Shown one piece after another: positions 1-8,244 of a stretch of DNA of 64,000 nucleotides (positions within the stretch are counted from its first letter, which is position 1; each line of letters starts with the position of its first letter). Below the pieces are notes generated by a model. That model made no database searches. It was not told where the DNA came from and saw nothing but the letters and a program-made list of their open reading frames with translations. The stretch covers positions 345,808 to 409,807 of the forward strand of contig CABYLQ010000001.1 in assembly GCA_902519845.1 (NCBI GenBank), in the 5' to 3' direction. The position numbers and the translations under genes were made by a program. Source of the stretch: an uncultured Candidatus Actinomarina sp. GTDB taxonomy: Bacteria; Actinomycetota; Acidimicrobiia; Actinomarinales; Actinomarinaceae.

Positions 1-419
1 TTAATACCCTTTGGGAGATTACTTAGCTCTTCAAACACAACTGGGTTTTTTCTATTATCTAGTTGAATATGTACTTCTTCATAACCAACTGAATATTTTT
101 TATTTTCATTTTCAAAACTTGGTACTGGTAAAAAATAAATCAATAGCCCACTGATAATAAAAGTTGATGATAAGAGAAAAAAAGAAACAAATTTAAGGAA
201 ATTATTTTTTGCAGAATATTCAAATCTATATTTCACAACATAAATCAGGATCATTAGAAACAGTGGAACATATTGCCACTTAAAACCAACTATGTATATT
301 TGAGAAAAAGAAGATAAAACAACCAAAATTAAAGATAAAAAAAATAATCTTTTCGATATAAATTTATTTAGCATCAGTCCAAAAACCAATAATAAAATTG
401 CAATATCAAAAAAATCCAT
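1..419 (-). CDS. Hypothetical integral membrane protein, N-terminal 139 codons only; the ORF runs off the window edge
   Basis: Hand translation of the minus strand from the ATG at 419 gives MDFFDIAILLLVFGLMLNKFISKRLFFLSLILVVLSS... with no stop before position 1. There are four hydrophobic helix-length segments. The ORF table missed it because no stop codon lies inside the window. Confidence 0.35.
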   Translation of the reverse strand, partial: MDFFDIAILLLVFGLMLNKFISKRLFFLSLILVVLSSFSQIYIVGFKWQYVPLFLMILIYVVKYRFEYSAKNNFLKFVSFFLLSSTFIISGLLIYFLPVPSFENENKKYSVGYEEVHIQLDNRKNPVVFEELSNLPKGI

Positions 420-553
420 AATTAATTATATGTATATTTTTGTAATTAGAGACTTTACATAATGGACCTATTTACTTTTGGCAGTTTTGGCAGTGATAAA
501 GACCATTTTGTTACCGCGGATATGCAAAAACATAAAAAAATATTAAATATGAA

Positions 554-1669
554 TTAAATTACAAAAACAATAAACATTAATATGAAACTTATTACGAAAA
601 TGAATACAGACGTAGTTTTAACATTTTGTACTTTTGAAATCGTTACTGCACTATTTTTCATAGATTCGATGTACTCTAAAGCTTCATCCAATTTGTCTAA
701 ATCATAAATTTCATTATTTAATTTTAATTTGACGATTTTTTCTTCAATATCTTCAAGAATTTCTAAAGTTAGATTGGGTTTATCCCAATCAATTTGATCG
801 GAAATAGGCTGATAGAGTTCATTAATTTTATTAACTGTAGAAAAAGTTTTATCATTTAGATGAATAATATTTTCTGTATTGAGTTCATCAGAATCAGCAA
901 CAAAATTTGTTAACCACTCTAAAGCATTGTCTGATAAATCATCTACATAAAGACTTTTCTTTTCATAGTAGCTATAACTTGTCTCCCAGGCTCTTTCTAC
1001 TTCTTCGTTTTCCTTATATCTAAGGATTTCAGCGTTTTGAACATTTTCAACATCTCTAAAGTTTATAAAATAATTAGGAAAATTTAATATTAAATGATTA
1101 AATCTATGCATCATTCCGTAAACTGCTCCCTCTTCCTTTTCTGAATAATAATAATTTAGACTTTCAATAGTCTGACCGAGTTTTTCTTTATAAGATTTCA
1201 TATTTCTCTCGGAATCTAAGTTTTTGGAAAACAATGATTCAAGTAACAAATACTCTCTTTGTGTGTTTGTCTTATAATCATAAATTTGTTTTTTAGTTGG
1301 AAGACTATTTTTTTGTCCAGATTTTCTAGTTGGAATGGTATCGAAGATATTTACAATTTTTGGGTACTCTAAATTAGCGAATATTTCCTGACAAAATTTG
1401 AAGACATTTTCTGCCTGCTCTTTATTGTGTTCATTTTTATTAGAAAATTTATATTCTGACCAGGCATTAAAGTCTGCATTTGATCCATCTTGGTATTCTA
1501 GGTTAATAAAAATTCCTAAAAAGTGAGTTAAATTCAATAAATGTCTGTACGTTAATTTTATAAATTCATAGTCAACCCTTTGTGTGGTATTTTCAAAAGG
1601 AAACATAACATATTCGTTTGCCATAAGTTCTGTTTTAATTTTATTGAAAATTTGAAAACACATTGTCAC
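554..1669 (-). CDS. Hypothetical protein (371 aa) with one C-terminal transmembrane helix (tail-anchored); Tyr/Glu/Asn-rich soluble part; no domain recognised
   Basis: Long ORF transcribed divergently from hsdM. The C-terminus SVFIFVISFILMFIVFVI is a hydrophobic anchor. The true start may be the internal Met (MANEYVMF...). Confidence 0.55.
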   Translation of the reverse strand: MTMCFQIFNKIKTELMANEYVMFPFENTTQRVDYEFIKLTYRHLLNLTHFLGIFINLEYQDGSNADFNAWSEYKFSNKNEHNKEQAENVFKFCQEIFANLEYPKIVNIFDTIPTRKSGQKNSLPTKKQIYDYKTNTQREYLLLESLFSKNLDSERNMKSYKEKLGQTIESLNYYYSEKEEGAVYGMMHRFNHLILNFPNYFINFRDVENVQNAEILRYKENEEVERAWETSYSYYEKKSLYVDDLSDNALEWLTNFVADSDELNTENIIHLNDKTFSTVNKINELYQPISDQIDWDKPNLTLEILEDIEEKIVKLKLNNEIYDLDKLDEALEYIESMKNSAVTISKVQNVKTTSVFIFVISFILMFIVFVI

Positions 1670-6692: not shown

Positions 6693-6786
6693 TCTAACCC
6701 AACAAAAACACCTCATTTTTTAATATTTGATACCTAAATTACATTGAAATACATGATCTCTAGAAACTTTCAATTATCTTTAGAGT

Positions 6787-8244
6787 ATGAACCAGGGCAT
6801 TAAGTTCTATAAAACATACGATGTAAAAAAAATATCCGAGTGTCATCAATCTATTGGGCCAAAAACCTTAACGCCAAATTCTCGATTGGACAGATGGAGT
6901 GGCGTTCATAATGCAATATCTGATTGGATGGTTAACGATGCTGATGACGAAGTAGCGGTAAAAGTAGCGGAAGAAAACTTTCAGTATTATGACCCCCTCC
7001 AGAGAAAAATAATGTCAGAACTCTTTGCACGATTTAGGGCGTTAGTTCCAAAACCTTTACCACAAGTAAACATAGATTTTTTTAGACAAGAAGTATCTAA
7101 AGATATTGATGGTGAACAAAAAGGTATGTATACATCATTCCAATATCAGTTTCAGGATGAAGACAATACTGAATATATAAAACTCAAAGCAGGAGTATCA
7201 GATGTAGAAGACATAGATAAAGCAATAATCGCTGAAACCAAACTTGAAGGAGAGACATTTCTAACAGCTCAACTGATCAATGATGATTTTGATGAAATAA
7301 AAGAACCTGAAAACTCTAAAGAGATAATTGAAAACTATTTCGAGACAATCAGAGAATTTGAAACCAATAGAAAGCAAGCAACACCTGGTTTACATTGTTA
7401 TATGTGTTCTCGTCCATCGAGATGTGGCCAGTACCCTGTAGTTGACGGACAGGAACCAAAGTCAAATTTTAGAGGGATCCTCATAAGCAAATCCAATTTG
7501 ATGAATCTAGGAACATGTGAACGTTGGACATCTTGGAGAGCTCAATATGCAATTCCAAAAGATATTGAAAAAGAATCGTTTGAAGCAGAACTTGGGCAAA
7601 AATTTCATACTTACTCACAAATAATGCTTGAAAAAAATGAAGATATATTTGGGAAAAAAGAAATAGAGCGCTTAAAAGAAATGCTTGGAAACGAAGAAGA
7701 AAAATTTGCGGTACAAATCCTTAAAAAATATGAAGAACTTATTCAAGCTCTAGATACTGAAGTAGAAAATAAAAATGATCTAGAAATTAAATTATCGGAG
7801 TACGGTCTTGGATTCTCAGTAGTTACGGATGGGATAGTTTCTAATTCAAAAATGGAGTTAAGAGATCACAAAGTAGCGGTTACCTTTATGGGGCAAGCAG
7901 ATCTTGTTGGACGATATAAGGGTAAAGGGCTCGTAATAGAGCTAAAAACTGGTCAAGAAAGTAATGATGATTTAACAGAGGCAGAGCTATACGCATTAGG
8001 TGCAAAATTATTGCTTAAAGAAGACGAAGTGTATGTTTTTCATATTTATACAAATAAAGATGGTGGAAAGTTAAAAAAGAGAAAATTTGGCGAAAGTGAG
8101 TTTGATTCAATAATTAAAAAATTCAAGGATAAAGCACAAACAGTCGCGAATTGGAATCCTAATGATTCGTTATCACCTTCTTTTAATGTTGGTGATTGGT
8201 GTGCTAATTGTGACTACCAAACAACATGTCCTGAATATAGATAA
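6787..8244 (+). CDS. Uncharacterised 485-aa protein; C-terminal Cas4/RecB-like PD-(D/E)XK nuclease domain with CxxCx5C clusters (putative Fe-S); N-terminal ~330 aa unknown
   Basis: C-terminal region has D-x(n)-E385-L-K387 (DLVGRYKGKGLVIELKTG) followed by ELYALG and a terminal C472-x2-C-x5-C481 (CANCDYQTTC). A second CxxCx5C lies at residues 204-213 (CYMCSRPSRC). Co-oriented with hsdR and 94 bp downstream of it. Confidence 0.55.
   Translation: MNQGIKFYKTYDVKKISECHQSIGPKTLTPNSRLDRWSGVHNAISDWMVNDADDEVAVKVAEENFQYYDPLQRKIMSELFARFRALVPKPLPQVNIDFFRQEVSKDIDGEQKGMYTSFQYQFQDEDNTEYIKLKAGVSDVEDIDKAIIAETKLEGETFLTAQLINDDFDEIKEPENSKEIIENYFETIREFETNRKQATPGLHCYMCSRPSRCGQYPVVDGQEPKSNFRGILISKSNLMNLGTCERWTSWRAQYAIPKDIEKESFEAELGQKFHTYSQIMLEKNEDIFGKKEIERLKEMLGNEEEKFAVQILKKYEELIQALDTEVENKNDLEIKLSEYGLGFSVVTDGIVSNSKMELRDHKVAVTFMGQADLVGRYKGKGLVIELKTGQESNDDLTEAELYALGAKLLLKEDEVYVFHIYTNKDGGKLKKRKFGESEFDSIIKKFKDKAQTVANWNPNDSLSPSFNVGDWCANCDYQTTCPEYR

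Follow-up and report, generated by a model that had tools for sequence, protein, structure and literature searches.

The start of the window, by which we mean the whole 64,000-nucleotide stretch analyzed here from an uncultured Candidatus Actinomarina sp., is best explained as a type IB restriction-modification (R-M) operon and unlinked membrane-protein genes, all cargo of a genomic hotspot, beside a nuclease gene that belongs to the core genome; we put the probability of this explanation as a whole at roughly 85%. The host is a member of the marine Actinomarinales whose resemblance to G1.1 SAGs points to genus G1. A strain-specific flexible island has its right-hand portion at positions 1 to ~6,740, and its left edge lies beyond the window start; it occupies a hotspot found across the order, flanked by a gene for a GMC oxidoreductase and by the gene for a core Fe-S nuclease. 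A sequence-only reading had described positions 1-8244, upstream of acn-pdxH-rph, as one inserted accessory island and had suggested that its genes form a linked defense module. This interpretation is partly supported. The type I system and the accessory insertion hold, the latter for everything left of ~6,740, whereas the nuclease part (to 8244) is core; the link of the nuclease to the R-M genes is refuted and that of the membrane proteins is unsupported.

The hsdMSR Operon and Its Specificity Alleles

The overlapping hsdM-hsdS-hsdR operon that had been proposed is complete, and each of its ORFs matches the corresponding family models. The first gene, hsdM (1750-3213, plus strand), encodes the type I N6-adenine DNA methyltransferase subunit, with matches to N6_Mtase (194 bits), HsdM_N (42 bits) and, over its full length, the PADLOC model MTase_I (500 bits); its translation contains ANPPFG, an NPPF-type catalytic motif. 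It overlaps by 11 nt with hsdS (3203-4390, plus strand), which matches PADLOC Specificity_I and has two Methylase_S stretches, that is, two target-recognition domains (TRDs). An overlap of 8 nt leads into hsdR (4383-6692, plus strand), the restriction/translocase subunit, in which ResIII, Helicase_C, HSDR_N and EcoEI_R_C are found. Furthermore, HsdR matches the EcoAI/FtnUII equivalog model of NCBIfam (NF046051) from position 1 to 768 of the 768 in the model, and its 780 bits exceed the cut-off of 550. With the domains expected of HsdR, HsdM and HsdS all present, hsdMSR is, by its sequence, a complete type I R-M system of the EcoAI (type IB) family.

The similarity to EcoAI-type systems extends to the three subunits, the hsdM-hsdS-hsdR order, the overlapping genes, the end-to-end match of HsdR, the NPPF-type motif of HsdM and the two TRDs of HsdS. 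The translationally coupled operon presumably acts in an EcoAI-like mode, in which an M2S1 complex would methylate the bipartite site recognized by HsdS and unmodified sites would lead to translocation and cleavage by HsdR. As differences, the host is a streamlined uncultured marine actinobacterium with a genome of ~1.1 Mb, and the closest hsdM outside Actinomarina-like contigs is only ~65% identical to that of the window.

The same hsdM/hsdR pair is found in ~27 marine metagenome contigs, and the hsdS alleles are distinct in 20 out of 20. Where contigs encode hsdM and hsdR that are 84-98% identical to those of the window, their hsdS shares only 20-34% identity with the window allele, and some pairs of alleles have about half of their sequence in common. 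As one hsdM/hsdR pair circulates with many hsdS alleles, it follows that specificity has been diversified by TRD swapping. Such shuffling of TRDs and of whole hsdS alleles within a population is a further likeness to EcoAI-type systems.

The Variable Island and Its Site

The right edge of the island lies at ~6737-6745, ~45 bp ahead of the ATG of the nuclease gene, and from there onward the sequence is common to all related genomes. The junction (6693-6740, unstranded) is identical in an hsdMSR-bearing metagenome contig (L061), which has the same hsdMSR-nuclease junction as the window, and is dissimilar to the sequence of genomes whose site holds other cargo or none. The relatives come from a genome scan seeded on the nuclease, which returned 45 loci, 42 of them from Actinomarina/Actinomarinales, and which says nothing on the share of Actinomarinales that have no nuclease. 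Comparing presence and absence at the locus in relatives, as had been suggested, shows that hsdMSR and the two membrane-protein genes are strain-specific: these five ORFs left of ~6,740 are singletons among the 45 related species loci. A conspecific SAG (L011), with protein identities of 98% for the nuclease and 99% for acn, carries different cargo at the site. In 20 genomes the GMC-oxidoreductase gene and the nuclease directly abut, with 17-260 bp between them, and the site is therefore empty; in 11 others they are 0.7-8.1 kb apart, and in another 8 the upstream sequence covered (4.9-10 kb) ends before the GMC-oxidoreductase gene.

Cargo at the site in other genomes is largely related to defense. 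Type II, IIG and III-like R-M systems are among its types, and individual loci carry MvaI/BcnI with a C5 methyltransferase and HNH, or BglII with a C5 methyltransferase and DndB. Schlafen, PIF1/UvrD helicases, ResIII-Mrr, Dam-type methyltransferases, a MORC-like ATPase and GmrSD_C also occur, as do PADLOC matches to NsnB, PDC-M16A, GajB, a type IIG REase and TIR. Non-defense cargo is represented by DUF454, alpha/beta hydrolase, GDSL, M10-like and NrtR proteins. With the same flanks, differing cargo and empty sites, the site is a flexible genomic island and defense hotspot. Of the five groups defined by nuclease identity, at least four, including G1, have cargo at this site. Within the window, searches for att-type or inverted repeats around the island gave only short chance matches of low identity, and neither a tRNA nor an integrase is present at the right-hand junction.

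Flexible islands have been reported in Ca. Actinomarinales, and in genus G2 one of them, whose site is conserved, holds type I-III R-M systems (PMC7771536). That survey (Lopez-Perez et al. 2020, PMC7771536) reported a single order-wide island, the glycotype island fGI1, and according to the same paper CRISPR is absent from the order. The site described here resembles these islands and other core-flanked defense hotspots in having constant flanks and strain-varying cargo that is mainly R-M and defense, in a GC content near or slightly under that of the core and in the tendency of assemblies to break at the site. In contrast to the R-M island of that survey, which is in G2, the site between the GMC-oxidoreductase gene and the nuclease is used in several groups including G1.

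Two Minus-Strand Genes for Membrane Proteins

Divergent from hsdM, and on the minus strand as previously described, lie a gene for a 371-aa tail-anchored protein (554-1669), which is read away from hsdM, and the 5′ part of a gene for a polytopic membrane protein (3-419), which starts at 419 and runs off the window start after 139 codons. Hydrophobic segments are found in both. The 371-aa protein has a single one, at residues ~349-371 at its extreme C-terminus, and homologs suggest that its true start is probably the ATG at 1624 or at 1663; the partial protein has about four within its first 100 residues. The 371-aa protein is nearly an ORFan, with only 5 representatives of its family recovered by an exhaustive HMMER search of 1.84 billion proteins. 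The partial protein has seven homologs of 80-209 aa, which are encoded on short marine contigs and have no precomputed Pfam domain. We considered a PAF-acetylhydrolase-like hydrolase behind the transmembrane region of this protein and rejected it, as its two longest homologs have no Pfam match even at an E value of 0.1.

The sequence-only reading had raised a possible link of both genes to the R-M operon. Among the contigs that carry the same hsdM (84-94% identity), 8 extend 600 nt or more upstream of it; they show at least six different sets of neighbors there, and all 8 lack the 371-aa gene as well as the polytopic membrane gene. Neither gene is present in any of the 45 related species loci, and neither protein matches a defense model. 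We conclude that both are additional cargo, for which a link to the R-M operon is unsupported.

The 371-aa protein, with or without its polytopic neighbor, might be a defense or abortive-infection gene in its own right, independent of R-M. It is membrane-anchored and extremely rare, the hotspot in which it sits carries mostly defense genes in other genomes, and the GC content of its gene (~26-27%) is low, as is typical of recently acquired genes (bioRxiv 10.64898/2026.04.03.716425). We nevertheless regard this as unlikely, given that the protein resembles no model in Pfam, PADLOC, NCBIfam or PHROGs and that hydrolases, peptidases and an NrtR-like regulator are clear non-defense cargo at the same hotspot; its homologs, moreover, are all on contigs of 1.3-2.7 kb, too short for any gene context. 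The window fragment of the polytopic protein likewise has no match in PADLOC, NCBIfam or PHROGs.

A Tandem Cas4/RecB-Type Nuclease

The 485-aa nuclease gene (6787-8244, plus strand) starts 94 nt past the hsdR stop and has a C-terminal PD-(D/E)XK domain, as had been noted: PDDEXK_1 matches residues 234-482 with 44 bits. The C-terminal domain (7456-8244, plus strand) has an intact PD-(D/E)XK site formed by D372, E385, K387 and Y402, with the motif E385-x-K387, and a cysteine set of C244 and C472-x2-C475-x5-C481. These eight residues are invariant in 20 homologs, and the four cysteines, like the catalytic site, conform to what is expected of Cas4 (C...CX2CX5C). The N-terminal domain (6787-7455, plus strand) has a second Cas4/RecB-type fold with its own cysteines (C19, C204, C207 and C213); its active site is degenerate, and it is probably inactive. 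According to the fold search on which the duplication rests, the protein is a tandem of two Cas4/RecB-type folds with a four-cysteine set each. When the N-terminal half was compared with the C-terminal half by hhalign, the alignment was confined to the CX2CX5C tail (22 columns, E 8e-4). An exact look-up of the nuclease sequence returned no record, and a profile of the nuclease family found no chain among PDB sequences at E values up to 1.

Cas4 models match the nuclease weakly, with 20.4 bits for TIGR00372 against a cut-off of 65 and at most 23 bits for those of PADLOC, and no cas genes lie beside it, its neighbors being hsdR and acn here and a GMC-oxidoreductase gene and acn elsewhere. In comparison with the Fe-S PD-(D/E)XK domains of Cas4, AddB, AdnAB and Dna2, the nuclease is without a helicase domain and without cas genes nearby, and it has two domains in tandem in one 485-aa chain, the first with a degenerate active site. 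An identity as an AdnAB/AddAB helicase-nuclease was rejected, as PDDEXK_1 is the only Pfam match and the N-terminal half has the fold of another nuclease and not that of a helicase. ACE1, an Argonaute-associated protein of the Cas4 family (PDB 9iab), has 266 aa and only one domain, whereas the nuclease here has two domains, ~11% identity to ACE1 and no Argonaute gene nearby. Long forms of the nuclease (778-849 aa) were considered as fusions with island cargo and found to carry C-terminal coiled-coil extensions instead.

Position, Evolution and Role of the Nuclease

The nuclease is found ~40 bp upstream of acn-pdxH-rph-rdgB(Ham1)-leuA in all 42 Actinomarinales species loci. In the window this housekeeping block (8280-14141, plus strand; Pfam matches) fixes the locus, and its gene order is kept in all related loci. 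The region just upstream of the nuclease (6741-6786, plus strand), presumably its own promoter or leader, is conserved throughout the aligned G1 genomes, regardless of what lies farther upstream. Since its position is conserved with or without cargo, we consider the nuclease a core gene and not part of the island.

This bears directly on the proposal that the Cas4-like nuclease and hsdMSR form a new linked module, with the nuclease as accessory partner, for example one that processes restriction products. The nuclease is co-oriented with hsdR only 94 nt downstream, it has a Cas4-like fold, and no terminator is predicted between the two genes, in a promoter and terminator scan of positions 400-8400 that gave fewer matches than shuffled sequence. 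Additionally, an unrelated contig (L062) encodes a different Cas4-like protein of 246 aa 7 nt after an hsdR of 95% identity, which indicates that such couplings can exist. The co-occurrence with hsdR by which a linkage was to be judged is nevertheless absent: hsdM, hsdS and hsdR like those of the window occur in 0 of the 42 Actinomarinales loci within the upstream sequence covered (up to 10 kb), and in all 42 the nuclease and its conserved 45-bp upstream region are beside acn, in 20 of them without any cargo. The homologs in Acidimicrobiia follow adnAB-like genes and not R-M genes. A partnership with hsdMSR is therefore extremely improbable, and a core position independent of the R-M genes is what the original proposal had itself named as evidence against it.

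The Acidimicrobiia homologs (25-27% identity; L053-L055) directly follow adnA/adnB-like genes, with a stop/start overlap in L055. Because they sit directly after genes for helicase-nucleases of this kind, we hypothesize from gene neighborhood and fold that the role of the nuclease is most likely DNA end processing or repair.

The gene has nonetheless evolved in an unusual manner. Identity of the nuclease between genera is 42-47%, compared with 75-86% for acn, and from this faster divergence together with its constant position at the border of the hotspot some functional tie between the two could therefore be imagined. Within the species, SAGs share 93-98% nucleotide identity from acn to leuA and only 78-84% in the nuclease gene, with a breakpoint at its 3′ end. 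In one genome (L016), a 90-bp direct repeat comprising the nuclease promoter region and the first 47 nt of the gene flanks a small cassette. The nuclease might thus serve the hotspot instead of housekeeping repair, either as an innate-defense nuclease or as a factor or target in cassette capture; it is the invariant right-hand neighbor of the hotspot, and the high within-species divergence is confined to it. We give this little credence, however, given that core genes flanking replacement islands are often as divergent without functional involvement (given as background in PMC7771536), that the direct repeat is seen in one case only and that the Acidimicrobiia homologs adjoin adnAB-like genes and not islands. 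The more specific forms of such a tie, namely cassette capture by the tandem nuclease at its own 5′ end, which could be suggested by the direct repeat of L016 and by the break between alleles at the 3′ end, or a partnership with whichever defense system lies upstream, we deem very improbable. With the nuclease as a core gene, the divergence pattern is consistent with a gene that appears to act as the right-hand homology arm in island exchange.

Implications

The R-M operon in the hotspot is a known kind of system. Because the nuclease is a core gene that is present with or without cargo, this is an ordinary defense island and not a new linked system, and as the membrane-protein genes are unlinked cargo, there is no new linked defense module to pursue. 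The hotspot, the hsdS alleles and the nuclease family are modest points of interest. First, a second defense-rich hotspot, used in several genera, is present in bacteria that rank among the most streamlined free-living ones, where an earlier survey had reported one order-wide island. Second, uncultured Actinomarina populations maintain one type IB R-M backbone with at least 20 specificity alleles. Third, the core nuclease represents an uncharacterized family of two-domain Cas4/RecB-type nucleases, predicted to hold two Fe-S clusters and encoded after adnAB-like genes in Acidimicrobiia.

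The Nuclease Is a Core Gene at the Edge of a Variable Island

The open reading frames at the left end of the window are as the sequence-only reading described them, and their coordinates, overlaps, 94-nt gap, and minus-strand pair all match our ORF map. On the plus strand, hsdM (1750–3213; N6_Mtase and HsdM_N matches) overlaps hsdS (3203–4390; two Methylase_S stretches) by 11 nt, and hsdS overlaps hsdR (4383–6692) by 8 nt. The 485-aa nuclease gene (6787–8244, plus strand) starts 94 nt past hsdR and is followed, in order, by acn, pdxH, rph, a Ham1/rdgB gene, and leuA. The minus strand carries a 371-aa ORF (554–1669), whose product is hydrophobic in just one segment, at the very C-terminal end, and a partial membrane ORF with about four hydrophobic segments, which starts at 419 and runs past the window start. 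GC content is 26–30% at the window's left end versus 33–39% in the core.

Several lines of evidence show that the nuclease is a core gene and not cargo of the island. The nuclease has few homologs, and these are marine. Across species-representative genomes, a scan recovered 45 loci, 42 from Candidatus Actinomarina or Actinomarinales and three from Acidimicrobiia at 25–27% identity, the closest being L011 (single-amplified genome AG-470-F09; 98% protein identity for the nuclease, 99% for acn). In all 42 Actinomarinales loci acn-pdxH-rph-ham1-leuA lies no more than about 40 bp 3′ of the nuclease. Window-like hsdM, hsdS, hsdR, 371-aa, and membrane genes occur in none of the loci in up to 10 kb of upstream sequence searched, with the lone exception of a 26% hsdR-like match in L018 that is part of another restriction enzyme. 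This fixed place before acn, kept without hsdMSR, refutes the proposal that the nuclease belongs to a linked, undescribed defense module with hsdMSR.

Clustering of upstream ORFs gives the ancestral order UPF0182-AhpC-ParA-BacA-PlsY-x-x-4HBT-GMC oxidoreductase (minus strand), then the nuclease. The gap between the GMC oxidoreductase and the nuclease is 17–260 bp in 20 genomes, which represent the empty site, and 0.7–8.1 kb in 11 genomes; 8 further genomes have no GMC oxidoreductase within the 4.9–10 kb of upstream sequence covered. Each of the five window ORFs to the left of the nuclease is a singleton in this clustering. DNA alignment places the right junction of the island at about 6737–6745, and 45 bp 5′ of the nuclease ATG are kept irrespective of upstream content, while the spacer from 6693 to about 6740 is common only to the window and L061, a contig with the same hsdMSR. 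The idea of an inserted accessory island thus holds for positions 1 to about 6,740 but not for the nuclease. In five assemblies (L009, L036, L040, L044, and L051) the sequence upstream of the nuclease gene stops after at most about 320 nt, consistent with breaks at a hypervariable site.

A Tandem of Two Cas4/RecB-Type Folds

Residues 234–482 of the nuclease match PDDEXK_1; Cas4 models, to which it had been likened, match weakly (20 bits, cut-off 65). Among 20 homologs H274, D372, E385, K387, and Y402 are kept, as is one cysteine set, C244 with C472-x2-C475-x5-C481. A second, separate set is also kept, C19 (at least 90% conserved) with C204-x2-C207-x5-C213. Modeled alone, the N-terminal 223 residues (pLDDT 80) give a near end-to-end fold match to Cas4/RecB-type nucleases, on which basis we conclude that the protein comprises two Cas4/RecB-type PD-(D/E)XK folds in tandem, each with a C...CX2CX5C set. 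At the sequence level the Cys tail alone aligns between the two halves, and a sequence search detects no PDB chain. The N-terminal copy has (K/R)LK(T/A)G in place of the C-terminal ELKTG and, in our motif reading, no conserved Asp; judged from these motifs and not from a structure-based alignment, it is probably catalytically dead.

In the three Acidimicrobiia genomes the nuclease homolog directly follows two genes of about 1000–1100 aa, from which a small unannotated ORF separates it (the arrangement spans 2917–11236 in L053 and 3134–11338 in L055). The pair in L053 scans as UvrD-helicase/PDDEXK_1, that is, adnA/adnB-like, and the pairs in L054 and L055 are so called because they cluster with it; in L055 stop and start codons overlap. 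The position of these homologs after adnA/adnB-like genes points to a role of the nuclease in DNA end processing or repair.

Longer metagenome forms of 778–849 aa (P0019, P0021, P0025, P0028, P0033, and P0039), which belong to some G2-like lineages, extend about 300 aa further at the C-terminus, where a long K/E-rich coiled coil precedes a domain of ~130 aa without a family match.

The Restriction-Modification Cassette across Populations

Family scans confirm that the predicted hsdMSR operon encodes a type I system with no subunit missing. Its HsdR aligns over the full length of the NCBIfam EcoAI/FtnUII equivalog model (780 bits, cut-off 550) and carries EcoEI_R_C, so we class the system as type IB. 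A metagenome scan with HsdM recovered about 27 marine low-GC contigs in which hsdM is 84–94% and hsdR 75–98% identical to the window genes, whereas hsdS is merely 26–35% identical. All 20 complete HsdS proteins (from L061–L082, L121, L122, and L138) are distinct; most pairs share 10–35% identity and several share 50–70%, the pattern expected if one of two TRDs were in common. Distinct HsdS beside near-identical HsdM and HsdR represent population-level diversification of specificity.

L061 has hsdR, an identical 94-nt spacer, and then the nuclease at 98% identity; its island variant also encodes a TIR-domain protein (1609–2859, minus strand). L066, another island variant with the same hsdMSR, encodes a 1078-aa AAA_15/AAA_21 ATPase (1928–5164) with a PADLOC NsnB match (168 bits). 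A genuine hsdR-adjacent Cas4-like gene exists in another variant of the cassette, L062, where a separate single-domain 246-aa protein (4981–5721; PDDEXK_1 57 bits, Cas_Cas4 28 bits) begins 7 nt past a 95%-identical hsdR.

The inclusion of the 371-aa and membrane genes in a linked module is unsupported, since both are absent from all eight contigs with at least 600 nt upstream of hsdM. Related contigs carry at least six different neighbor sets there, and we regard the two genes as cargo without a link to hsdMSR. A search of 1.84 billion clusters yields only five representatives of the 371-aa protein, none on a contig longer than 2.7 kb, and neither Pfam, PADLOC, NCBIfam, nor PHROGs contains a match to it. 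For the partial membrane ORF there are seven short homologs, none with a precomputed Pfam domain; scanning two of these against Pfam gave no match. For both genes, location in a hotspot offers no more than a modest prior for a defense role.

Turnover and Cargo of the Hotspot

The right junction in the window lacks an integrase, a tRNA, and any att repeat. A cluster of seven tRNA genes (two minus, five plus) lies at 16607–17179, between an acs-like gene and the next core genes. In four conspecific single-amplified genomes (L013, L015, L017, and L023) nucleotide identity to the window is 93–98% from acn to leuA and 78–84% in the nuclease gene, switching at about 7,937–8,237, the 3′ end of that gene; in L011 identity remains 91–100%. 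The nuclease gene thus exists as two allele classes within one species and is likely a recombination arm. Such a switch is expected if islands are exchanged by homologous recombination, and we infer that one of the crossovers would fall within the nuclease gene or past it. In L016, a 90-bp direct repeat (9540–9629 and 9958–10047; 89% identity) of the nuclease upstream region and the first 47 nt of the gene lies on either side of a 104-codon ORF. A cassette inserted at the nuclease 5′ end may have left this repeat, which hints at occasional additive insertion.

Cargo in other genomes includes an MvaI/BcnI REase, C5 methyltransferase, and HNH protein (L004/L028); a BglII-like REase, C5 methyltransferase, and DndB-like protein (L005); Schlafen-AlbA_2 and a PIF1/UvrD-HRDC helicase (L014); UvrD-type helicases with PADLOC matches to GajB and PDC-M16A (L016); a ResIII-Mrr enzyme like type IIG REases and an N6/N4 methyltransferase (L018); an hsdS fragment (L019); a MORC-like ATPase and Dam-type methyltransferase (L020); two methyltransferases (L021); and a trypsin-GmrSD_C fusion (L027). 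Non-defense cargo comprises DUF454, an alpha/beta hydrolase, an FNR-like reductase, a GDSL lipase, M10-like peptidases, and an NrtR-like Nudix regulator. At least four of the five nuclease-identity groups, G1-like and G2-like among them, have cargo at the hotspot.

Flexible islands of Actinomarinales have been described: an R-M type I–III island occupies a conserved site in genus G2, just one island is shared by all genera of the order, and neither CRISPR nor toxin-antitoxin systems nor mobile elements were found (Lopez-Perez et al. 2020; PMC7771536). We conclude that the window holds a type IB R-M cassette and orphan cargo in a defense hotspot beside a core nuclease of tandem Cas4/RecB type.
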